The translations under genes and the position numbers were made by a program. From an uncultured Candidatus Saccharibacteria bacterium (GTDB lineage: Bacteria; Patescibacteriota; Doudnabacteria; UBA920), in the NCBI GenBank assembly GCA_964512925.1, contig CAZEKH010000001.1, positions 136,226 through 200,225 on the forward strand: a stretch of 64,000 nucleotides of DNA, in the 5' to 3' direction. A model generated the notes under the pieces. That model searched no databases, was not told where the DNA came from, and saw only the letters and a program-made list of their open reading frames with translations. Below are positions 12,416 through 59,676 of this stretch, piece by piece. Position 1 is the first letter of the stretch; the number at the start of each line of letters is the position of its first letter.

Positions 12416-12897
12416 TTTTCGGTTGCGGTTAATTGTCCGTCTGAATTTATTATGCCGATGAACTGGGTGTCGTTTTGGTAGTGTTTTAAAACAAAAGGTA
12501 TTGAGACCTTTGCATTTTTGGTAAACTCGGCGAGTGGCAAGTTGTCTATGGGGTAAAAATTCAGAGCGCCTTCGTTGGAGTCTAAATTGTTTGGGACTGA
12601 CAACAGCACTCCCGTGTGCCAGCAGATTATAGACAAAAGGTCCGGCCTGGTTGTTAAAACGGTTAATTTTAGCTTTAAATCGGAGATTTGATCTAGGGTA
12701 ATATGGCTTTCTTCCGAAAGTTCTCTGAGTAAAGATTTTTGCAAGTCTTCAGCTTCTCCAAGTTCCAACTCGGTCTTGCCGCCTAAAGTGGAAATCAGAT
12801 TCGGATCGCGCTTTCTTTCGGGTGAACGCTTCATTAGTAAAACTTCTTTTTTGTTTGGGTGTATAAGGATCAGACCGGTTCGGCATTCAATTTTCAT
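12412..12897 (-). CDS. NUDIX hydrolase
   Basis: Nudix box GGKTELELGEAEDLQKSLLRELSEES (GX5EX7REUXEE pattern retained). Confidence 0.6.
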   Translation of the reverse strand: MKIECRTGLILIHPNKKEVLLMKRSPERKRDPNLISTLGGKTELELGEAEDLQKSLLRELSEESHITLDQISDLKLKLTVLTTRPDLLSIICWHTGVLLSVPNNLDSNEGALNFYPIDNLPLAEFTKNAKVSIPFVLKHYQNDTQFIGIINSDGQLTATEK

Positions 12898-13141
12898 TTG
12901 ATTGGGTTTTTATTAGTTTAAGTTTTTTTATTCTTGACCATTTTTTAACTTCTGACTCGCGTTTTAGAGCTTTGTTTTTGCTTCGAAATTTTTCACTATA
13001 TACTATTTTTCCGCCGCCACGGCTTCTTGTGTATTTGGCGCCCTTGCCCGTGTTGTGAAGCAGCGCGCGCTTTTTTAGGTCATTTGTTGAACCGGAGTAG
13101 AGGCTTTTGTCTTTACAAAGGAAAATGTAGAAGTAATGCAT
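12887..13141 (-). CDS. small stand-alone GIY-YIG nuclease (COG2827/UPF0213-like)
   Basis: YFYIFLC...LYSGSTNDLKKRALLHN. GIY-YIG motifs within 84 aa. Confidence 0.7.
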   Translation of the reverse strand: MHYFYIFLCKDKSLYSGSTNDLKKRALLHNTGKGAKYTRSRGGGKIVYSEKFRSKNKALKRESEVKKWSRIKKLKLIKTQSNEN

Positions 13142-15487: not shown

Positions 15488-15727
15488 ATGTATTACTTAT
15501 ATATAATAAAAAGTAATATTAAAGACTGGCGTTATATAGGAATCACTGACAATGTTGAAAAAAGGTTAATTGAACACAATAAAGGTAAAACCAAATCAAC
15601 TAAAGCCTATATTCCATTTACGCTTATTTATAGAGAGACTTTTTCTAACAAGACCGATGCTAGAAAAAGAGAAATATATTTGAAGAAAAATTATAAAGCA
15701 AGAGAAGAAATATTTAGAAACTTATAA
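15488..15727 (+). CDS. small stand-alone GIY-YIG nuclease
   Basis: MYYLYIIKSN...RYIGITDNVEKRLIEHN. Confidence 0.7.
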   Translation: MYYLYIIKSNIKDWRYIGITDNVEKRLIEHNKGKTKSTKAYIPFTLIYRETFSNKTDARKREIYLKKNYKAREEIFRNL

Positions 15728-48289: not shown

Positions 48290-49215
48290 TTTGTATAATT
48301 TTTTACATACTAATTAACTCCCCCAAGGCCCCCCGTCCGAACGCCCACGGCGGGCAGGCCTCTTTAAAAAAGAGGGGGGAATGAAGCGGGTAGGTTTGAA
48401 AAAGAGTGGAAAAAATATTACAGTCGTTGCAACCTCACCCCACCCCCTCTCCGATAGCGGAGAGGGGGAAGCGGATGCAAGATTCCAGCCGGAGTTTACC
48501 CCGATGAACATCGGGGCGGGAATGATACCTTTTCTATTTTTGTCATCCCCACATAACCGGGGATCTTGGTTTTTACCCTCTCCAATATGGGAGAGGGTGT
48601 CCCGATGAACATCGGGACGGGTGAGGTTTGAGCGATGGTGATAAAATATAAGTTGGTTTAATTTTCTAACATTGTTACCTCACCCCATCCCCCCGCCCGA
48701 ACGCCACAGGCGGGCAGGTCTCCCAAATGGGAGAGGGGGTAAAGAACGCATCATTCTCACCTAGTGGGAATGATATAGAAACGCGGAATGACGGAATATT
48801 TTTCCTATTTTCCCCAAGTTTCCCACATAGCTTTGCACAGGGGTTTTCCACTTTTGGGGGATAATTTTTGCTGTTTGTTGGGCTTTGACCAGAGGCAGGC
48901 TTTTGTGCCAAGATATAAAGACCACTTTTTACCCCCGTTAGAAGCAATCCGCCGTCAGGTGGATACCGAGCCTTTTTGTGCCCGGGCTTCTAACGGGGTG
49001 ATCTGGTTTGTGGGGACATTAACTCCCCCTGACCCCCTCTTTGAAAAAGAGGGGGAAATGAAAGGGGGTAGATTTGAAAAAGAGGGGAGAGGCTTAAAAT
49101 ATTACAATCATCGTAACCTCACCCCCCTACTTCGTTAAAACTTCGTAGGGCAAGCCAGCCCCCCGCCCGAACGCCCAAGCCGGGCAGGTCTCCGATAGCG
49201 GAGAGGGGAACTAAT
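48290..49215. repeat. ~0.9-kb non-coding repeat cluster
   Basis: Contains CCCTCTCC-loop-GGAGAGGG hairpins, CCGATGAACATCGG hairpins, CCCGAACGCC..GGCGGGCAGGTCTCC modules, a TGTCATCCCC..GGGGATC element and a 75-bp GGTGAGG..CCTCACC MITE-like unit. Confidence 0.7.
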
Positions 49216-50451
49216 TTGATATCTATGAATGAGCTGAAAATAAAAATTGAACAAGAGATTGTTAAAGCTTCCGGGATTTCTATCATCGGGCTTTTAAACG
49301 ACCTGGTGGAATACGCGGAAAGCCTCCGCGCTTCGGACATCCATATTGACCCGTACGAAAAAGATGTGCTGGTTCGTTTTCGCGTGGACGGGGTCTTGCA
49401 GGAGATATTCCGCTTGCCGAAAAATATCCATAGCGAAACAATCAGCCGCATCAAGATTTTGTGCGGCCTGAGGACTGACGAACATCAGGCGGCGCAGGAC
49501 GGACGCTTTCGGATGTTTTTTGATGTTGAAAAGAAAAAATTCATTGACGTCCGCGTGTCCGTGGTCCCAACTTACTTTGGCGAAAACGCGGTGATGCGTC
49601 TTTTGACTGACAAGGCCGAAGGTTTGTCTTTGGACGACTTGTATTTTTCCAAAGAAAACCAGAAAAAAATCCTTAAAGCCGCGCATAAGCCTTATGGGAT
49701 GATCTTAACTACCGGCCCTACGGGTTCGGGCAAAACCACCACGCTTTACGCGCTTATCAAGCTTTTACAGGGGCCAGAAATTTCTATCGTAACTATAGAA
49801 GACCCGATTGAGTACGCGATGCTGGGCATAGAGCAGATCCAGGTCAACTCCAGAACCAACTTAACTTTTGCCCAGGGACTTCGCGCCATCCTCAGGCAGG
49901 ACCCAAACATCATAATGGTTGGCGAAATCCGCGACTCAGAAACTGCCGGGATAGCGGTTAATACGGCGCTTACTGGACATTTGCTTTTGTCCACTCTTCA
50001 TACCAATGACCCGGCTACCACTCTGCCCAGGCTTTTGGATATGGGAATAGAGAGCTATCTGGTTGCCTCCACTGTTAACTTGGTTATCGGTCAGAGATTG
50101 GTTAGAAAAATTTGCGAGAGCTGCAGAGTAGTAAAAAAATTCACCCCTGCTGAAACCAAAAGTTTGTCCGAACATATCCCTTTAAAAATCTTAAAAAAAT
50201 TTAAACACTTCTATCAAGGTACCGGCTGCGATGAATGTAACAACACCGGGTATAAAGGCAGGGTGGCGCTGCACGAGGTGTTGGAAGTTGATGATCATAT
50301 CCGCGAGTTGATTTTGAAAAAAGCTTCCGCAACGGAGATCCGCCATCAGGCTTTTGAAAAAGGCACGGTGGCTATGGGAATGGATGGTCTTTTAAAAGCC
50401 GGGCAAGGCCTGACCACGGTGGAAGAGATACTCAGGATAAGCCATGAGTAG
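49216..50451 (+). CDS. pilB: type IV pilus assembly ATPase, GspE/PilB family (short form)
   Basis: Walker A GPTGSGKTTT, Asp and His boxes, C-terminal tetracysteine CESC...CDEC. Confidence 0.8.
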   Translation: MISMNELKIKIEQEIVKASGISIIGLLNDLVEYAESLRASDIHIDPYEKDVLVRFRVDGVLQEIFRLPKNIHSETISRIKILCGLRTDEHQAAQDGRFRMFFDVEKKKFIDVRVSVVPTYFGENAVMRLLTDKAEGLSLDDLYFSKENQKKILKAAHKPYGMILTTGPTGSGKTTTLYALIKLLQGPEISIVTIEDPIEYAMLGIEQIQVNSRTNLTFAQGLRAILRQDPNIIMVGEIRDSETAGIAVNTALTGHLLLSTLHTNDPATTLPRLLDMGIESYLVASTVNLVIGQRLVRKICESCRVVKKFTPAETKSLSEHIPLKILKKFKHFYQGTGCDECNNTGYKGRVALHEVLEVDDHIRELILKKASATEIRHQAFEKGTVAMGMDGLLKAGQGLTTVEEILRISHE

Positions 50452-50517: not shown

Positions 50518-50895
50518 TAATTTGCTGTCATCCCGGCCTTGAGCCGGGATCCAGGGTTATATGCAAAACGAATGTTATGTATACATCCTTGCAAACAAAA
50601 GAAACGGAACACTGTATGTGGGAGTGACCAATGACTTAATAAGAAGAGTTTATGAACATAAAAATGATTTAACAGAAGGCTTTACTAAAAAGTACCAGAT
50701 ACACACTTTAGTCTATTTTGAAAATACAGGAAATATAGAAAGCGCAATAAAAAGAGAAAAACAGTTAAAAAGATGGCAAAGACAATGGAAAATATCCCTT
50801 ATTGAAAAACAAAATCCGCAGTGGAATGAGTTATACTCTAACTTGACTTAACCCTGGATCCCGGATATCCGCCTAAGGCGGATTCCGGGATGACA
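50518..50895 (+). mobile_element. GIY-YIG gene bounded by inverted hairpin repeats
   Basis: Left TGTCATCCCGGCCTTGAGCCGGGATCCAGGGTT (50521-50553). Right AACCCTGGATCCCGGATATCCGCCTAAGGCGGATTCCGGGATGACA (50840-50887). Both are members of the same element family, in opposite orientation. Confidence 0.4.
50561..50851 (+). CDS. small stand-alone GIY-YIG nuclease (UPF0213-like) inserted between pilB and pilC
   Basis: CYVYILANKRNGTLYVGVTNDLIRRVYEHKN. Confidence 0.7.
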   Translation: MQNECYVYILANKRNGTLYVGVTNDLIRRVYEHKNDLTEGFTKKYQIHTLVYFENTGNIESAIKREKQLKRWQRQWKISLIEKQNPQWNELYSNLT

Positions 50896-51023: not shown

Positions 51024-52142
51024 ATGTTTAATTTAAAAATTCAAAAAAACACACCTGAACTAGTTACTTCTCCGTCGTTTTTTACCCGCCTTGTTGAAGG
51101 TTCCATCTCCCGCTCGGAGCAGGTGCAGTTTGCAAAGAGGCTGGCTTTTTTGATGCGCGCGGGAGTGCCGATTTTAGAGAGCCTGCAGATTTTGGCCGGG
51201 CAGTCTAAGACTAAAGGCGGCAAAAAAATGTTAGAGAATTTGGTGTCAGAAGTTTCCAACGGGCATTTTTTGTCTACCGCAATGGCTAAGTTTTCTTCCG
51301 TGTTTGGTGACTTTGCGGTCAACATTGTCAAAGTCGGGGAACAGGCTGGCATCTTGCCTGAGAATTTAAACTATTTGGCGGAGGAGCTGAAAAAAAAGCA
51401 GGCGCTGAGAAAAAAAGTGATGGGCGCTTTGTTTTACCCGATATTTATAGTGGTGGCCACGCTTTTGTTGGTGGGACTTTTAACTGTCGTGGTGTTTCCT
51501 AAAGTTTTACCCATCTTTACCAGTATCAATGTGCCTTTGCCTGTTAGCACAAAAATTCTAATGTCAGTCAGCCGGTTTCTCATAGCTTATGGATTTTGGG
51601 TGTTGATTTTGATATTGATTTTTCCCTTCGCTCTTTTGTTTTTATCCCGCTTGCCTAAAGTCAAAGCCTGGCTGGATAAAGTTTTGCTGAAAATTCCGTT
51701 AGCCGGTAGCATTGCCCAGAACTATTATTTGGCTAACTTTTGCCGGACTATGGGACTGCTACTCAAAGGCGAGTCGCGCCTTGACGAAGCTTTGCAGACT
51801 TCCGCGCGTACCACGCAAAATATGGTTTACAGAAAGCAGCTGGAAAACCTGGCGCAGACTGTAGCGAAAGGCAGTAGGATGTCCGAGTATATGCTGAAAA
51901 ACAAAAAATATTTTCCGGATATGGTGTCTCATATGTTGGCCGTGGGGGAAACCGCGGGCAACCTAAGCGAGAGTTTTATGTATCTGGCGGATATGTACGA
52001 AACCGAGGTAGATGACCAGACAAAAAATTTATCTACTCTCATTGAGCCGGTTTTGATGGTGTTTATGGGCCTGTTGGTCGGTTTTGTTGCGATTTCCATC
52101 ATCACCCCAATTTATTCGGTTACCCAGAAATTACATCCATAA
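51024..52142 (+). CDS. pilC: type IV pilus inner-membrane platform protein PilC (GspF family)
   Basis: Two T2SSF repeats and three TM segments. Confidence 0.85.
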   Translation: MFNLKIQKNTPELVTSPSFFTRLVEGSISRSEQVQFAKRLAFLMRAGVPILESLQILAGQSKTKGGKKMLENLVSEVSNGHFLSTAMAKFSSVFGDFAVNIVKVGEQAGILPENLNYLAEELKKKQALRKKVMGALFYPIFIVVATLLLVGLLTVVVFPKVLPIFTSINVPLPVSTKILMSVSRFLIAYGFWVLILILIFPFALLFLSRLPKVKAWLDKVLLKIPLAGSIAQNYYLANFCRTMGLLLKGESRLDEALQTSARTTQNMVYRKQLENLAQTVAKGSRMSEYMLKNKKYFPDMVSHMLAVGETAGNLSESFMYLADMYETEVDDQTKNLSTLIEPVLMVFMGLLVGFVAISIITPIYSVTQKLHP

Positions 52143-52265
52143 TGCCCCTCTCCGAGCACGGAGACCTGCCCGCCGTGGGCGTTCGGGCGGGGGGTTAGGG
52201 TGAGGTAACAGTGTTTGAATATTAAATAAGCTTAAATTTTATTACCATCGCTTAAACCTCACCCC
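52142..52265. repeat. composite repeat including a 75-bp MITE-like element (GGTGAGGTAACAG...TTAAACCTCACC)
   Basis: Near-identical copy at 52870-52990. Related copies at 48610-48683 and 58930-59005. Confidence 0.7.
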
Positions 52266-52311
52266 AGCCCTCTCCCATATAGGAGAGGGAGTAAAAACAT
52301 TTCTGACAATT

Positions 52312-52797
52312 ATGATCAATTCTGCGCAATCTAAAAACGGGTTTACCCAACACCATTTTTTTTTAGAAAAAAATAGTGCTGGGTTTACCCTCATAGAAGT
52401 TTTGGTTTCAATGGGTATACTGGCAATGCTGGGGACTTTGGGACTGGTGTTTGGGTTGGATTTTTATCGGGCGTATGCTTTTAACTCGGAAAGGGATTTG
52501 GCGGTGGGGATTTTACAAAAAGCGCGCAGTCGCAGTTTGGCTAACATTAACCAAACAACTCACGGAGTTTGTATTATAGGTTCTAAATATATTTTGTTTG
52601 AGGGTGCTTTAAATTGCGATCCGAACAATTCAGCCAATGAAGTTTATGATGCAAACCCAGGCGTTTCAAATTCGGGACTACAAATTGTTTTTCAGCAGCT
52701 TTCCGGTAGGCCGAATTCTGTTGGTTCTGTAACATTAACTTCGGGCGTGAGATCTTCGGTTATTAACATTAACGCTGAGGGGATGGTGGAGTGGTAA
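52312..52797 (+). CDS. pseudopilin / minor pilin (prepilin-type N-terminal cleavage/methylation domain)
   Basis: KNSAGFTLIEVLVSMGILAMLG class III signal. Confidence 0.7.
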   Translation: MINSAQSKNGFTQHHFFLEKNSAGFTLIEVLVSMGILAMLGTLGLVFGLDFYRAYAFNSERDLAVGILQKARSRSLANINQTTHGVCIIGSKYILFEGALNCDPNNSANEVYDANPGVSNSGLQIVFQQLSGRPNSVGSVTLTSGVRSSVININAEGMVEW

Positions 52798-53056
52798 AAT
52801 AATTTAAGATTAAAGATTAAAGATTGAAGATTTAAACAATACGTTTTTATTTTATATGTATGAGTTTTTTCAAATCCCCCTCTCCACTCTCGGAGAGGGT
52901 TAGGGTGAGGTAACAGTGTTTGAATATTAAATAAGCTTAAGTTTTATTACCATCGCTTAAACCTCACCCCTTCCCTCTCCCATATGGGAGAGGGAGTGAA
53001 AAATCAAAAAAAATAGGGTTGAGATAATGTAAAAAAAATGCTAAACTAAGGCGCAA

Positions 53057-54526
53057 ATGAAAATATCAGGAAAAAAAATAAATACCCAGGCAGGCGGCAG
53101 CACGGTTGAGCTAATGGTGGCTTTGTTCGTGTTTGTCGTGTGTTTAGCCGGCATCATTGCCGTGGTTTTTGGCAACCAGTTTTTGTCCGTGGATACGGAG
53201 ATGAACGGAACTGCCATAGCCAAAGCCCAGGAGCTTTTGGATGAAAAGCGTAACGACGCAAGAACGAACTTTAACGGCGTGGTAGCCGGGGTTTCTACTG
53301 ACGGACAATTTACTAAGACAGTGGCAGTCAACAATCTTAACCAATGCCAAAAGGAAGTAACAAGTGAAGTTTCCTGGAACGACGGCACACGCTTACAAAA
53401 AGTTTCTTTAACTACTTTGATCAGCAACACTGACGAGCTCGTGGCGGTCAGCGGAGTTTGCTCAAACCAAAATGGTTTTTCTGGCCTTACTTGCCCCAGT
53501 ACATCGTCTTATTCGGATTGGAATTTTACTTTGCCTGGCGGCGGGACAGTTAAGTCTATGTTTGTGACTAGTAGAATTGTAAGTCTGGCGGTAGACCCTT
53601 CCGGCACGGCAATAACAGATTTTGACTATCTTAGGTTTACAGTTTCTTCTGGTTTAGTATTTAACAATGGAACATTTACAAGAACTCCTTCCGGCGTACG
53701 CACTTCGTCCGGCGGTTTAAACGGCGTAACATATGACAACTCAAAAACTTATGCGTATGGCGCTGGCAAGTGGAGTGGCGCAGGACAAGTGCAGATCATC
53801 AATGCCGACGCAACAAGACCAGGGGGAATGTATGCCATAGCCTTTGTCCTCGATAGTAACACTCAGGACGCTTTAAGCATATTTTTTAGGGACAATAAAA
53901 TTTACATAGGGACAAAAAATAACCCCTCAGGTCCTGAGCTTTATATCATCGACGTTACGAGCCCGGAGTCAGCTCAGATTTTAGCTACCAAAGAGATTGG
54001 CGCGGATGTAAAAAAGATTGTTGTTAGGGGGAGTTTGGCTTACTTAGCAACTTCGGACCCAAGCGCGGAAGCGCGGGTTTATGATATTGGGCAAGTCAAA
54101 AGTATTGCTTTGCCAGGCGTGATCAATTTTGTTGGAAATTTCAATGCCAGTTTGCTTTCCGGTGCCAACAGTTTGGCGGTTTTGGGCGCTACTGTGTTTT
54201 TGGGCGGCAGTGGCGCAAATAATTTTTATGAAATAAATACTTTAAACGCTTCTTCAATGTCTGAGATTACGCATCAACCGATAGGCGGGAGCATAAACGA
54301 CCTTTCCGCCAGCGGCAACCTGGCATATCTCGCCACTGACGGCGCCAATGTTTCAGGCAAGGAGCTTGAACTGTTAAATTACGCGGATATAAGTAGTCCT
54401 CAAACCTGTGCCATTGGTTCGGAAGACTTGCCAGCCTCGGCTTCGGCCGTGGTGTTAGATGGGGGATGGGTGTATGTGGGAATGAATGCTTCAAACAAAC
54501 CGTTGAGGATATATAAGTTTCAGTAG
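53057..54526 (+). CDS. pilin-like protein fused to an LVIVD-repeat beta-propeller domain (candidate pilus-tip adhesin)
   Basis: N-terminus AGGSTVELMVALFVFVV (G-x4-E prepilin-like). C-terminal half has repeated LYIIDVTSPES / ARVYDIGQV / LAYLATxD motifs resembling LVIVD repeats. Confidence 0.55.
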   Translation: MKISGKKINTQAGGSTVELMVALFVFVVCLAGIIAVVFGNQFLSVDTEMNGTAIAKAQELLDEKRNDARTNFNGVVAGVSTDGQFTKTVAVNNLNQCQKEVTSEVSWNDGTRLQKVSLTTLISNTDELVAVSGVCSNQNGFSGLTCPSTSSYSDWNFTLPGGGTVKSMFVTSRIVSLAVDPSGTAITDFDYLRFTVSSGLVFNNGTFTRTPSGVRTSSGGLNGVTYDNSKTYAYGAGKWSGAGQVQIINADATRPGGMYAIAFVLDSNTQDALSIFFRDNKIYIGTKNNPSGPELYIIDVTSPESAQILATKEIGADVKKIVVRGSLAYLATSDPSAEARVYDIGQVKSIALPGVINFVGNFNASLLSGANSLAVLGATVFLGGSGANNFYEINTLNASSMSEITHQPIGGSINDLSASGNLAYLATDGANVSGKELELLNYADISSPQTCAIGSEDLPASASAVVLDGGWVYVGMNASNKPLRIYKFQ

Positions 54527-54585: not shown

Positions 54586-55083
54586 ATGAGTTATAAATTA
54601 CAAAACCAAAATTTAACTCCCCCTAACCCCTCTTTGAAAAAGAGGGGTGAAGAAGCTGGGTTTACCCTGCTCGAGACTTTGCTTTATATCGCCCTCCTGT
54701 CTTTTTTTCTCGCGAGTTTGGTGGGTATCACTTATCAGTCTTTGGATTCAGCCGGGCAGATTGGCCGAAAAATTGCCATTCAGCAGGAAGCTAACTTTAT
54801 ACTTAGAAAAATGGACTGGGCTATAACCGGTGCTTCGGACATCACCGGAACTGCGGATCATTTAACAATCACAAGGACTGTTTCGCCTACTTCAGTTGAA
54901 TTTATCTCAGATACTCTAAACAAAGGTATGGACATCAAAGCCGAGCTTGGCCAGATGAAGTTAAACAGCAGTAACGTCAAAGTGGAAAATGTAAATTTTG
55001 TCATATCCGGCAGTCCGAAAAAAGTCGTAGCCAGTTTTGATATTAACGGAGAAAATTTTAGTTTGACTAGGTATTTGAGGTAA
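54586..55083 (+). CDS. pseudopilin / minor pilin
   Basis: EAGFTLLETLLYIALLSFFLASL. Confidence 0.7.
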   Translation: MSYKLQNQNLTPPNPSLKKRGEEAGFTLLETLLYIALLSFFLASLVGITYQSLDSAGQIGRKIAIQQEANFILRKMDWAITGASDITGTADHLTITRTVSPTSVEFISDTLNKGMDIKAELGQMKLNSSNVKVENVNFVISGSPKKVVASFDINGENFSLTRYLR

Positions 55084-55096
55084 CCGTTAGAGACTT

Positions 55097-55795
55097 ATGG
55101 AATATACTTATATTTTAAAAAGTAAAAAAGACGGTAAAATGTATACAGGTCTGACCAGTGATCTACGGAAGCGTTTTAAGGAGCATAATGAAGGTTTGGT
55201 TCCTTCTACAAAGAATAGAGGGCCATTTAAGATAATTTATTATGAAGCTTGTGTAAATAGACAAGATGCCGCAAGTAGAGAGATTTTTTTAAAAACTGGT
55301 ATGGGAAAGAGATATATAAAAAATCGTTTAAAACGCTTCCTGTCTCTAACGGCTCAAAGAGATAGTGCTAGCACCGTTATAAACAGCTTGCCAAAGTCAA
55401 GCGAAGTTTTTAACGGTGGATATATCGCTTTAACTTCCGTCATCATCGTTTCTTTATTGCTCCTGACTGTCATCACCGCTTTAAGCTCTGTTAACTATTT
55501 TTCCCGTTACAACATATTGGAAAACGAATATAAGGACAGAAGTTTTGCTTTGGCTGAAGGCTGTGTGGATTATGCTATAGGAAGACTGGCGGGAAATAGT
55601 AATTACATCGGTAATGAAACAGTAAACATCGGAGTCGGAACTTGTCAGGTGGCGTCAGTTTCTTCCGGGGCTTTTCCTAAAACTATCAGCACTGTCGGAA
55701 TTTTTCCACCCACGGCTGCAAAAAAAAGTTATACCAAACTTCAGGCAGTTGTAAGTTCAAGTTTCGCCATCAGTTCTTTTATAGAAAATCCATAA
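55097..55795 (+). CDS. GIY-YIG nuclease domain fused in frame to a pilin-like hydrophobic C-terminal half (possible insertion-generated fusion)
   Basis: First ~90 aa are GIY-YIG (YTYILKSKKDGKMYTGLTSDLRKRFKEHN). The remainder has GGYIALTSVIIVSLLLLTVITAL and an internal TTG that could start a separate minor-pilin ORF. Confidence 0.5.
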   Translation: MEYTYILKSKKDGKMYTGLTSDLRKRFKEHNEGLVPSTKNRGPFKIIYYEACVNRQDAASREIFLKTGMGKRYIKNRLKRFLSLTAQRDSASTVINSLPKSSEVFNGGYIALTSVIIVSLLLLTVITALSSVNYFSRYNILENEYKDRSFALAEGCVDYAIGRLAGNSNYIGNETVNIGVGTCQVASVSSGAFPKTISTVGIFPPTAAKKSYTKLQAVVSSSFAISSFIENP

Positions 55796-56112
55796 ATATG
55801 CTTGTCATTCCCTTGGCAAAGGGAATCTTGTACCCTCTCCCTCTCCGAGAGACGGGGATCTGCCCGCCTTGGGCGTTCGGGTGGGGGTAGGGGTGAGGTT
55901 ACGGATTTGATAAAATTAAAGATATTTAAATATGTAATATTAACCCCTGGATCCCGGATATCCCGCGAAGCGGGATTCCGGGATGACAGCAAAAATTTTT
56001 TGGAAAGATTGAATTTTGAACATTGAATCAAGATATTTCTAAAAAACCAACCGCCTTTACAAAAGGCGGATATAAAATTATAATTAAGCCATAAATATTA
56101 AATCATTAAAAT

Positions 56113-56625
56113 ATGAAAAAGTTTCTTAAAAAATCCCAAGGATTTACATTGATTGAAATCCTGGTAGTCATCGGTATCATCGCGGTGTTGGCAACCATTG
56201 TCATCATCGCCATTAACCCCGCCCGCCAGTTTGCCCAGTCAAGGAACACTCAGAGGACGGCCAATGTCCAGGCAATTTTAAATGCGGTAGGGCAGAGGAT
56301 TGCGGATAACAAAGGTGTGTTTGCCGGCACAGTAGGAGCCCAAACTTGTCCAAATTTAACCACCTCCGGAGCAAATGCCTTAACTGCTGGCACTGCTTAT
56401 AAAATAAAGGCTCCTGCAGTACTGGCAAGTAATGAGATTGATTTATCGTGTCTGGTTACAACTTATATTCCTTCTTTTCCTTATGATCCAAGCGATGCAG
56501 CTGCAGCGTGGACAAGCACAGCCGCTTATAATACCGGGTATACAATAGCAATTGATGCGAGCGGAAGAGCTACGGTAGCCGCGCCTACTGCTGAATTAGG
56601 AACGACTATTTCAATCACCCGCTAA
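56113..56625 (+). CDS. pilA: type IV major pilin
   Basis: MKKFLKKSQG|FTLIEILVVIGIIAVLATIVI canonical prepilin leader and N-terminal helix. Confidence 0.8.
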   Translation: MKKFLKKSQGFTLIEILVVIGIIAVLATIVIIAINPARQFAQSRNTQRTANVQAILNAVGQRIADNKGVFAGTVGAQTCPNLTTSGANALTAGTAYKIKAPAVLASNEIDLSCLVTTYIPSFPYDPSDAAAAWTSTAAYNTGYTIAIDASGRATVAAPTAELGTTISITR

Positions 56626-56702: not shown

Positions 56703-56996
56703 TTGATAAACTTTATTATGCAAAAAACTTTACCTGCATTTTTAAAACCTGTTGTTTGGTGGGCTAAGTTTGATGATTTGGATATTGAAAAAGACAAGGG
56801 AACTATTATTGCGCACATATTAAATACCGGAGATACAAAGGCCACAGACTGGATGAAATCTGTATATAAAGAACAAGATATTAAACAGGTTTTACTTGAA
56901 AAAAGACCAGGTTTTTGGGATAAAAAATCTTTAAATTTTTGGTCATTGGTTTATGGAGTAATGCCGAATTTTAATCAGATGCGCCAGATAAAATAA
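56703..56996 (+). CDS. hypothetical protein, candidate antitoxin partner of the downstream AbiEii-like gene
   Basis: 97-aa ORF ending 2 nt before the next start. Assignment by position only. Confidence 0.35.
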   Translation: MINFIMQKTLPAFLKPVVWWAKFDDLDIEKDKGTIIAHILNTGDTKATDWMKSVYKEQDIKQVLLEKRPGFWDKKSLNFWSLVYGVMPNFNQMRQIK

Positions 56997-56998
56997 CT

Positions 56999-57619
56999 AT
57001 GCATTTAGAAATTTTAGACAAAGAAAAACAAGATTTGTTGCCCCATCTAGTGCTATTTTCTCAGCAATTTTATTTAGCTGGTGGTACGGCTTTAGCTTTA
57101 CAACTTGGCCACAGGAAAAGTGAGGATTTTGATTTTTTTTCACAAACTGAATTTAACGAAAACGAATGGAATATCAAAACTGAAAAAGAATTTTTAAATT
57201 TTGGTTTAAAAAAAGTTACTGCCACTTGGCAGACTTTGGGGTATCATATTGGCGGGCATACCAGTTTAAGTTTGATGTGCTATCCGTACCATTTGCTTGA
57301 GCCGTTCGTAGAAATAAAAGGTTTAAAACTCGCTTCGCTTTTAGACATTGGTTGTATGAAATTGTCAGCCATTGTGTCGCGTTCTACCAGTAGGGATTAT
57401 GTTGACCTGTATATGCTTTTAAATGGGCATTTTGAGTTAGGTTTTTTGCTTGAAAAATGTAAAAAAAAGTTTCCAACTTTGGATACTAACCTCATCATAA
57501 AATCTTTGACTTATTTTGAAGATATGGAAGATAAAAATTTGGATATACTGGATCCTAAAATACCCGATATGAAAAAAATTCAGGAATTTTTTGTGAAAGA
57601 AGTAAAAAAGCTTGTATAA
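56999..57619 (+). CDS. nucleotidyltransferase, AbiEii/AbiGii toxin family (DUF1814)
   Basis: FYLAGGTALALQLGHRKSEDFDFF N-terminal motif typical of AbiEii. Confidence 0.6.
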   Translation: MHLEILDKEKQDLLPHLVLFSQQFYLAGGTALALQLGHRKSEDFDFFSQTEFNENEWNIKTEKEFLNFGLKKVTATWQTLGYHIGGHTSLSLMCYPYHLLEPFVEIKGLKLASLLDIGCMKLSAIVSRSTSRDYVDLYMLLNGHFELGFLLEKCKKKFPTLDTNLIIKSLTYFEDMEDKNLDILDPKIPDMKKIQEFFVKEVKKLV

Positions 57620-58779: not shown

Positions 58780-59100
58780 CCCTTGAGGGGGAGGGTTAGG
58801 GAGAGGTGATGCAGTGAATTTTTTTTCATCCTCGCGACTTGTCCTTCAGCAGTTTGAACGAAGGAGGAATGTGGGGATCTTGGTTTTTTGCCCTCTCCGA
58901 TATCGGAGAGGGTGTCCCGATGAACATCGGGACGGGTGAGATTTGAGCAATGGTGATAAAACATAAGTTTATTTAATTTTCTAACATTGTTACCTCACCC
59001 CTGACCCTCTCCGAAAGCGGAGAGGGGGAAGAGGATGCAAGATTCCCGCTGGAGTTTATCCCGATAAACATCGGGGCGGGAATGACAGCATTAAATGAAA
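58780..59100. repeat. second copy of the ~230-bp composite repeat unit (circularly permuted relative to 48437-48683)
   Basis: 58872-59005 matches 48553-48683. 59005-59095 matches 48437-48527, both at high identity. Confidence 0.75.
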
Positions 59101-59576: not shown

Positions 59577-59676
59577 GAAATTAGAAGAAAGTTTTTAAAT
59601 ATTAAAGTTTGTTACCTCACCCCAACCCTCTCCGAAAACGGAGAGGGGGTTTGGCCAGAAAATTAACAGAAACAAA

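Follow-up and report, generated by a model that had tools for sequence, protein, structure and literature searches.

A 64,000-nucleotide (nt) stretch of metagenome-derived DNA from an uncultured Candidatus Saccharibacteria bacterium (contig CAZEKH010000001.1; referred to below, at its full length, as the window) contains within its pilus operon a single open reading frame (ORF) of 232 codons (55097..55795, + strand) in which a GIY-YIG domain runs on into a minor pilin. The ORF begins with ATG and has zero internal stops in the ORF listing of the window, bearing out a preliminary description of this locus, which had noted a GIY-YIG domain followed, in one frame and without a stop codon, by a hydrophobic pilin-like half. 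On the evidence of its ends, the segment made up of codons 1–86 is a full copy of a compact transposon-like unit of ~270 bp and not a domain that evolved onto the pilin. From this repeat-bounded unit the frame continues across an older miniature of the element and enters a minor pilin gene that is itself intact; we consider it probable that the whole is made as one prepilin and cleaved.

The most likely product, as we infer it, is a single prepilin, translated from ATG 55097, and prepilin peptidase would remove its leader of 108 residues. The leader would stay cytoplasmic while the hydrophobic helix enters the membrane, and cleavage after Gly108 would set the GIY-YIG protein free and leave the mature pilin in its normal form. 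Through this cleavage the insertion would be nearly harmless, which would allow the element and its miniatures to accumulate in frame in prepilin leaders. More speculatively, the stem or cruciform of the element's own repeats is a probable substrate of the nuclease.

The GIY-YIG Unit and Its Ends

Codons 1–86 (55097..55354, + strand) encode an intact minimal GIY-YIG protein of the UPF0213/Slx1-like type, with a match to Pfam PF01541 over amino acids (aa) 2–67 (E = 2.6e-15; 56.9 bits against a cut-off of 22.6). The domain is complete, as had been described, but it does not fill the first ~90 codons; it ends at codon 86, and 86 aa is also the standalone length in the family. The GIY-YIG motif residues (the Tyr-x-Tyr strand, Y-x-G, Arg, and His/Glu) are intact; Y3, Y5, Y16, G18, R26, H30, E50, R61, and E62, invariant in the GIY-YIG alignment, are all kept; and the window copy has 42 of the 44 positions conserved at ≥90% in 76 copies, the sole deviations being Y64F and G86A. 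More than 1,400 close relatives of this half were found with residues 1–108 as the query, the best 120 of which are 68–79% identical and 85–109 aa long (mostly 86 aa), ending in ...MGKRYLKNRLKRFLSLTG. Those listed stem from Omnitrophota, Patescibacteria, Flavobacteriales, and others. The relatives end in KRFLSLTG, whereas the window copy reads ...RFLSLTA and then runs on. The solved structures nearest to the family profile are 1zg2 (E = 2.2e-10) and 1ywl, both UPF0213 proteins, and SLX1. By sequence, the GIY-YIG half belongs to the minimal UPF0213/Slx1-like branch (compare the "standalone Slx1-like" minimal GIY-YIG branch of Dunin-Horkawicz et al. 2006; PMC1564403), and nuclease activity is predicted.

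The unit was surveyed in 80 loci from species-representative genomes, retrieved with a GIY-YIG-only alignment as a query free of pilin sequence. It occurs widely among uncultured bacteria (Patescibacteria, Omnitrophota, Nitrospirota, Planctomycetota, Desulfobacterota, and others) and is made up of an 11–16-nt terminal inverted repeat, a short spacer, an 86-codon ORF, and a second covarying helix within the ORF. The ORF has no stop within the repeat core, and the 3′ repeat codes for its last four residues, S-L-T-G. In the window copy, the 5′ terminal inverted repeat (CCGTTAGAGAC, 55084..55094, + strand; 11 nt) directly follows the TAA (55081–55083) that ends the preceding minor pilin gene, and 2 nt separate it from the ATG. 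It is 100% complementary to the 3′ terminal inverted repeat (GTCTCTAACGG, 55342..55352, + strand), which codes for S-L-T and the first base of codon 86; this codon is Ala in the window copy and Gly in the family. In 73 of 81 other copies the core CCCGTTAGAGA is placed 3–16 nt ahead of the ATG, and its reverse complement, TCTCTAACGGG, constitutes the last eleven coding bases (S-L-T-G) in element copies. Perfect complementarity of the 11-nt ends is found in 63 of 82 copies, from many phyla, and variation in the 3′ arm is compensated in the 5′ arm (L049, L074, L082, L084, L087, L088, and L089).

The internal helix of the window copy pairs a 5′ arm (GGAAGCGTTTTAA, 55167..55179, + strand; codons RKRFK) with a 3′ arm (TTAAAACGCTTCC, 55328..55340, + strand; codons LKRFL) over 13 nt at 100% complementarity. 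This helix is perfect in 38 of 81 copies and has one mismatch in 29 of 81, with many compensatory synonymous changes; 96.4% of its cells are paired, and changes on both sides occur in 7 pairs. When both helices are taken together in 76 aligned elements, 96.7% of cells are paired and two-sided changes are seen in 18 of 27 pairs. None of 500 column shuffles (0/500) equalled the observed covariation, and slid controls paired at 25–51%. An Rfam scan of 54900–56100 matched no RNA family or intron, and tblastn against phage and plasmid collections returned only distant GIY-YIG proteins (35–43% identity) and no close relative.

The Junction, the Linker, and the Pilin Half

Most surveyed copies of the element end in ...ACG GGN followed by a stop, and in most standalone copies this stop (TAA, TGA, or TAG) lies outside the repeat. 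In the window it is replaced by CAA (Gln87, 55355..55357, + strand), and it is through the missing stop that the GIY-YIG domain and the pilin are fused; the hydrophobic stretch GGYIALTSVIIVSLLLL... continues the GIY-YIG frame. A Gln codon also opens the extension in other read-through copies (P0137, L069, P0042, and L054). The probability that the 22 linker codons would stay open by chance is ~0.35, so the open frame alone is without significance; the fusion is not attributed to chance because the same architecture recurs in other loci.

The sequence is metagenome-derived and the junction lies in a repeat-rich region, so a frameshift or chimeric join might mask a stop between two separate genes. 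However, the 232-aa product and its DNA are 100% identical in two Logan assemblies from different runs (SRR14271332, 6,024 nt; SRR14271336, 3,998 nt), the identity extending over 6.0 and 4.0 kb with the junction included. Since two separate read-set assemblies match the window exactly, a sequencing or assembly frameshift is very unlikely, and the sequencing frameshift that the preliminary description had suggested checking for is set aside. Homologous fusions are also present in unrelated data sets from ENA, JGI, Logan, and NCBI, and we give next to no credence to an artefact.

The linker between the unit and the mature pilin holds a miniature derivative of the element (55372..55418, + strand). 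This is an inverted pair, CACCGTTATAAAC (55372–55384) and GTTTTTAACGGTG (55406–55418), with a 21-nt spacer; an inverted-repeat search gave it as 13 nt at 92% complementarity. The orthologous pair in L008 (879–891/913–925) is likewise 13 nt, 100% complementary, and its spacing is also 21 nt. The 3′ arm of the window miniature codes for the Gly-Gly ahead of the mature pilin (before YIAL). It had been proposed, as one of two possibilities, that a homing-type insertion captured the start of a minor pilin gene. A mobile sequence does appear to have been inserted, but it is not a classical homing endonuclease gene (the protein has 86 aa and comes with no DNA-binding domain, intron, or intein), nor was the gene start pristine: an older miniature copy of the same element appears already to have formed the pilin leader.

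The three-part layout of full unit, miniature pair, and then G/[YF]IAL is shared by L069 and P0137, and the mature pilin parts of these two and of the window are only 33–39% identical to one another. The layout may be either an old arrangement that was retained or the result of one site being hit repeatedly.

Comparison with insertion-free orthologous loci had been suggested earlier as a check; most of these "insertion-free" orthologues themselves hold relics of the element. Homology to window residues 69–108 is seen in the leader of P0008 (MGKCYLKNRPKYFLG...; E = 2e-7), the leader of P0006 matches weakly (E = 0.008), and L007 retains the 5′-repeat relic TCCATTAGAGATTTATG. The sequence TTAGAGAYTTATG, common to the window and L007, was considered as a native pilin start and rejected, as it is the 5′ inverted repeat of the element or a relic of it.

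The mature minor pilin (124 aa and the stop codon, 55421..55795, + strand) is assigned to the PilX/GspK type and follows a predicted prepilin peptidase site at Gly107-Gly108 (GG/YIAL, 55415..55420, + strand), where cleavage would take place. When residues 96–232 were searched alone, the window protein and eight orthologues of 130–184 aa were recovered; these are 54–64% identical to the pilin half (one at 74% over a partial match), and none of the eight has a Pfam GIY-YIG match. Residues G108, Y109, I110, A111, and L112 are invariant across the nine family members, and in GG/YIALTSVIIVSLLLLTVITALS hardly any position varies over the Gly and the 20 that follow it; the invariant core of the nine sequences reads G-Y-I-A-L-x-S-V-I-I-x-S-L-L-L...N-Y-F-S-R-Y-N-I-L-E-N-E. 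The window copy keeps every invariant column and is intact rather than degenerate, as it had first been called. The assignment of the C-terminal half as pilin-type and part of a pilus operon is supported: the eight orthologues occupy the same position in syntenic pilus operons, with a gene order common to L003–L010. An AlphaFold2 model of this half (predicted local distance difference test score 83) has a 65-residue N-terminal helix (model residues 7–71) followed by five strands, a pilin-like topology of helix and five-stranded sheet.

Insertions in Other Prepilin Genes

The same element family is fused full-length to at least four other pilin families. When window residues 1–142 were compared by phmmer with 1.84 billion representative proteins, P0137, P0143, and P0148 were identified. 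P0137 is a fusion with the window's own pilin family (54% identity over both halves); P0143 (locus L010; 600 aa, reading ...SLTPTG/FSTLE) involves the LVIVD-type tip pilin of the syntenic operon; and P0148 (locus L011) reads ...PVTG/FTLIE. A full-length fusion with a GspH-like pilin is found in P0013 (locus L003; 253 aa); here the first minor pilin of the orthologous operon carries the GIY-YIG domain, as it does throughout L003–L006, and the gene is uninterrupted in L007. Four of the 84 copies retrieved without pilin sequence in the query continue for more than 130 aa, all of them into an N-terminal hydrophobic segment, and two are clear pilins: L042 (...SLTG/FTFLEISLVIL) and L069 (...SNRG/YIALITVV, of the window's PilX-like pilin family). 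At L056 (3001–3861) and L067 (3001–4494) the GIY-YIG domain is fused to non-pilin proteins that start hydrophobic (286 and 497 aa, respectively).

Locus L011 allows the insertion to be followed codon by codon. Upstream there is a relic, MKNKTGFT+PIRER and a stop (ATG AAA AAC AAA ACG GGG TTT AC/C CCG ATT AGA GAA CGG TAA), and the 3′ junction reads ACG GG/G TTT AC/C TTA ATT GAG; subtraction of the unit and one GTTTAC leaves the empty site MKNKTG/FTLIEI. The prepilin codons GGG-TTT-AC (G-F-T) contain GTTTAC, a hexamer favoured by the element. Since the element ORF ends in ...ACG GG, insertion at the G-F-T codons is automatically in frame and recreates the Gly/Phe-Thr site.

Metagenome contigs scanned for TCTCTAACGGGNTTYACNNTNNTNGAR yielded at least 120 stretches, and in several of them a single operon contains two or three sites; the junction counts given here cover 80 of these (90 junctions). 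Among the junctions listed, 73 of 90 are miniature repeat pairs (24–149 nt) in prepilin leaders and 1 of 90 holds a full in-frame GIY-YIG domain. A leader with a miniature has the pattern M..K-G-F-T-P-L-E...S-L-T-G/F-T-L-I-E. At least 74 leader miniatures are unique, and the lengths of 55 of 74 (74%) are divisible by 3 (binomial p = 6.7e-13); among the 74 listed, 52 keep the frame open across the element and 51 have TTYAC on both sides. The multiple-of-three bias and the open frames indicate that leader miniatures are translated with the pilin. To judge by these lengths and frames, selection has evidently preserved uninterrupted translation across the insert, from the old start on into the pilin, and such read-through makes sense if prepilin peptidase removes the extended leader. 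Splicing of the element at the RNA level was also considered and is disfavoured, as the multiple-of-three bias of the leader miniatures would then be needless.

The insertion could instead have killed the minor pilin, or be killing it, the long ORF being a transient step on the way to a pseudogene. Loss of the GIY-YIG part in most orthologues fits such a course, and the single full copy among the 90 metagenome junctions listed suggests that full copies are short-lived there. Both halves of the window ORF are intact, however, over 232 codons without a frameshift or stop; the layout of full unit, miniature, and pilin is kept in lineages whose pilin parts have diverged as far as noted above; and in the fused pilins of the four other families the mature parts are full-length. 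We regard inactivation as distinctly improbable.

Host Genes, Flanking Sequences, and Miniature Copies

Copies of the element are found at dozens of unrelated sites. The start of a host ORF follows within 15 nt in 53 of 81 copies, with a GG[ATG]A overlap in 29 of 81. In the usual junction, ACG-GGA-TGA, the element stop overlaps the ATG-A start of the next host gene. Judged from N-terminal sequences, the host genes are diverse (alaS, pth, xth, smc, rpmE-like, sugar nucleotidyltransferases, and many membrane proteins).

This range of hosts bears on the idea that the fusion is adaptive and provides a membrane-anchored nuclease in the service of the pilus, for example in processing DNA from a competence-type pilus. 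DNA uptake is a role often discussed for the type IV pili of bacteria with small genomes, and GIY-YIG–pilin fusions have appeared repeatedly in several lineages. Yet the same repeat-bounded unit precedes the unrelated genes just named, five different pilin families are fused with no single dedicated partner, the commonest leader state is a non-coding miniature relic, and the nuclease would be cytoplasmic with the pilin body outside. An adaptive fusion is in our estimation highly improbable.

Flanking hexamers within a locus agree at 3.26 of 6 positions, compared with 2.65 ± 0.11 after shuffling (2,000 shuffles, maximum 3.0), and clear 5–6-nt direct repeats (ATGAAT/ATGAGT, GTAAAC, GTCAAC, and GTTTAC) flank about a third of copies. 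At prepilin sites (L011, L042, and the leader miniatures with TTYAC on both sides) a duplicated target can be reconstructed clearly, whereas the flanks of the window copy show none. A 2-bp target duplication, as would be left by a 2-nt stagger of the I-TevI type, was rejected, as the flanks do not fit it.

Internally deleted miniature copies are present, as are tandem and nested ones, and 18 unique miniature copies occur in 600 kb of unselected loci. The ends, the flank repeats, and the miniature derivatives are hallmarks of a transposon-like element with derivatives resembling miniature inverted-repeat transposable elements (MITEs), and mobility is suggested by these features. Full and miniature elements are arranged in tandem or in clusters at L017 (100–140), L065 (3255–3275), and L037 (1980–3500), the last with at least four miniature copies within 1.5 kb; in tandem units the 3′ repeat of one is followed by GTAAAC and then by the 5′ repeat of the next.

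A filled site can be compared with an empty one from the neighbouring pilin gene only, L003 being filled and L007 empty. The two loci (L003:413–3136 and L007:625–3361) are 97% identical in DNA through pilB-pilC to the exact point of the GIY-YIG domain in L003, beyond which they are only 72–81% identical for at least 9 kb. This break in identity marks a recombination breakpoint that coincides with the element.

One Product or Two

A two-product reading, already raised in the preliminary description, has a GIY-YIG protein with a read-through tail made from ATG 55097 and a separate pilin made from an in-frame TTG (Leu98, 55388..55390, + strand). This TTG is the only candidate internal start and would give the 11-residue leader (M)PKSSEVFNGG/YIAL, within the orthologue range of 6–40 aa. 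It has no Shine-Dalgarno (SD) complementarity (+1.2 kcal/mol), compared with the SD-like GAGG of ATG 55097 (−6.9 kcal/mol); the missing SD is not disqualifying, as about half of the window genes are also without one. But the TTG site would be covered by ribosomes on the long ORF, the direct fusions L042, L164, and P0143 pass from SLTG into the pilin with no space for an internal start, and the multiple-of-three bias of the leader miniatures implies that selection sees translation through them. Synthesis of two separate products is, in our view, unlikely.

Several observations weigh against a single cleaved prepilin that originated by insertion of the element. The TTG could indeed start a separate pilin, and a scan of the 64-kb window in six frames with the regular expression GxGD[VIL]K revealed no gene for a prepilin peptidase. 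The GIY-YIG parts of the three PilX-type fusions are 63–72% identical, no closer to one another than to standalone copies. Target-site-like direct repeats are clear in only the third of copies mentioned, many copies being without a duplication, and TTTAC beside the 5′ repeat occurs at non-pilin sites too. An 86-aa nuclease without a DNA-binding domain is at most a candidate transposase, and the element could be mobilized by something else.

The remaining difficulties concern the pilin. The C-terminal half has no Pfam match (PilX_N, N_methyl, or GspK), with no match to N_methyl (PF07963) even at E = 10, and sequence and Foldseek searches gave no significant structural match; a search of PDB sequences likewise returned nothing significant, and the top structural match, the pseudopilin EpsI/GspI, is weak. 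Mature position 5 is Thr (Y-I-A-L-T) and not Glu. The absence of Glu5 is a trait of the whole pilin family, and GspK/PilX-type minor pilins likewise have neither Glu5 nor the N_methyl motif; these absences exclude membership among major-pilin-like proteins and not the minor-pilin class. Its context, N-terminal anatomy, and predicted fold suggest that the C-terminal half is a PilX/GspK-type minor pilin.

Comparison with Known Systems

Proteins of the UPF0213/YhbQ/COG2827 group (1zg2, BH0048; 1ywl, EF2693) resemble the element protein in having one GIY-YIG domain of ~86–100 aa and no auxiliary domain. Unlike the element, they are presented in the literature found without inverted-repeat bounds, a stop-less ORF, or mobility, and identity to 1zg2 is low (profile E = 2e-10). 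The Seg and I-TevI homing endonucleases of phage T4 are likewise selfish GIY-YIG genes that lie between or ahead of conserved host genes; the element protein has a weak match to an NCBIfam group I intron endonuclease model (E = 1.6e-4, far below the cut-off), and the abrupt identity break between L003 and L007 at the insertion resembles the co-conversion of homing endonucleases. Homing enzymes, however, have ~200–250 aa, a C-terminal DNA-binding domain, and long asymmetric sites, whereas the element protein is a catalytic domain only, and they are without the terminal inverted repeats, miniature derivatives, and target duplications that distinguish the element.

With insertion sequences (IS) and MITEs, such as the Correia elements of Neisseria, the element shares terminal inverted repeats, direct repeats in the flanks of some copies, many sites per genome, tandem or nested copies, and abundant internally deleted miniatures. 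It differs from them in being only ~270 bp long, in that one of its repeats is coding, and in that the arms and the internal helix covary like a structured nucleic acid. We know of no catalogued prokaryotic IS family that uses a GIY-YIG nuclease. The unit nonetheless appears to behave like an IS/MITE family and not like a homing endonuclease gene, given its many targets and its lack of a DNA-binding domain, intron, or intein.

The Rickettsia palindromic elements (RPEs), reportedly described by Ogata and colleagues in 2000, are said to be selfish palindromic repeats that lie in frame within protein-coding genes. Like the leader miniatures, RPEs are small palindromes that persist in ORFs by keeping frame and being translated; they have no known enzyme and occupy tolerant surface loops of many proteins, whereas the element has an autonomous-looking parent and its niche is a cleaved-off peptide. 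Inteins with homing endonucleases embody the same concept, an in-frame selfish nuclease whose product is taken out after translation, leaving a restored host protein. In contrast to inteins, removal of the element product would be carried out by the host prepilin peptidase, not by self-splicing, and the insert is N-terminal and not internal.

The window pilin has the features of GspK/PilX-type (pseudo)pilins, namely, a Gly and an ~20-residue hydrophobic helix without Glu5, and a predicted fold of helix plus β-sheet. Type IVb pilins have long leaders of 15–30 aa; a folded 108-residue leader is, to our knowledge, far beyond any described prepilin leader. In the full-text literature we found no description of the element repeats, the stop-less ORF, or the prepilin-leader niche.

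Other Features of the Pilus Locus

The fused ORF is the fourth gene of the minor-pilin block in the order pilB-pilC-(161 aa)-(489 aa)-(165 aa)-fused ORF-major pilin. The genes concerned are those for the ATPase (pilB, 49216–50451; Pfam T2SSE), the platform protein (pilC, 51024–52142; Pfam T2SSF), a GspH-like prepilin of 161 aa (52312–52797; Pfam N_methyl and GspH), a prepilin-like protein of 489 aa (53057–54526), a prepilin of 165 aa (54586–55083; Pfam N_methyl), and the major pilin (56113–56625; Pfam N_methyl). Directly after the major pilin there is a DUF6922 and AbiEii pair (56703–57619), resembling a type IV toxin-antitoxin system, that is absent at this position in L003 and L007.

Other leaders and spaces of the locus contain palindromic DNA as well. 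The leader of the first minor pilin has an in-frame palindromic insertion (52339..52390, + strand) between 10-bp direct repeats, GGGTTTACCC, and reads ...KNGFT-QHHFFLEKNSAGFT-LIE, with G-F-T coded twice; the orthologues in L007, P0011, and P0016 are without an insertion of this type, and L003 has the full GIY-YIG domain there. In the leader region of the 165-aa minor pilin there is a hairpin, CCCCTCTTTGAAAAAGAGGGG (54612–54650), of which a 77% copy is found upstream of pilB (49019–49057); leaders of orthologues of this pilin vary widely in length (7–24 aa). A miniature pair of the GIY-YIG element family (CCCGTTAGAAG ... CTTCTAACGGG, 48934..48997, + strand) also lies upstream of pilB, with 42 nt between arms that carry compensating variants, inside a doubtful ORF of 116 aa.

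A GC-rich palindromic family with the core CCCTCTCC-N6-GGAGAGGG has at least 11 copies across 48.4–59.7 kb (sites at 48325–49210, 52140–52297, 52897–53002, 55833–55887, 58885–59092, and 59594–59649), including larger units of 106–128 nt at 87–95% identity; it fills the intergenic spaces of the pilus locus in a window that is otherwise 43% GC. The pilus locus, and especially its leader-coding segments, is a sink for small palindromic mobile DNA.

Additional GIY-YIG genes are found in the window. A second subfamily is represented between pilB and pilC (50561–50851; 96 aa, ~38% identical to the fused copy) and is flanked by an inverted repeat of its own, AGCCGGGATCCAGGG and CCCTGGATCCCGG. Directly after it comes a 44-nt hairpin unit (50852–50895) that recurs, 89% identical, downstream of the fused ORF (55945–55988). 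Two standalone genes (12887–13141, − strand; 15488–15727, + strand) encode proteins of 84 and 79 aa that are 41–44% identical to the fused copy, and inverted repeats of the CCCGTTAGAGA type are not detectable at either; downstream of the second lies sequence whose translation resembles that of a tRNA gene.

Significance

There is a substantial chance that the unit represents a new class of transposon. A bolder possibility, which we put forward tentatively and hold to be less likely than its contrary, is that it is an autonomous DNA transposon, possibly the smallest known, in which a structure-specific Slx1-like nuclease acts on the stem or cruciform of the element's repeats, the ORF is stop-less so as to couple to the next host gene or fuse with it, and prepilins provide a safe harbour. 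On that transposon reading, the G-F-T codons of prepilins would mimic the target hexamer, and prepilin peptidase would excise the transposon-encoded protein in a manner reminiscent of intein splicing.

In terms of annotation, thousands of genes now listed as "GIY-YIG nuclease family protein" in uncultured bacteria would become copies of one unit with defined ends, which would alter the annotation of these genomes and of operons rich in insertions, and a minimal Slx1-like nuclease combined with covarying inverted repeats is a candidate for a new mechanism of transposition or excision. If a single prepilin is made from the fused ORF, prepilin peptidase would tolerate a folded leader of ~100 residues, which might serve as a cleavable tag system. 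For the pilins themselves, the element would explain long leaders of the form ...GFTPLE...SLTG/FTLIE, the processed leader peptide being a sink for selfish DNA.

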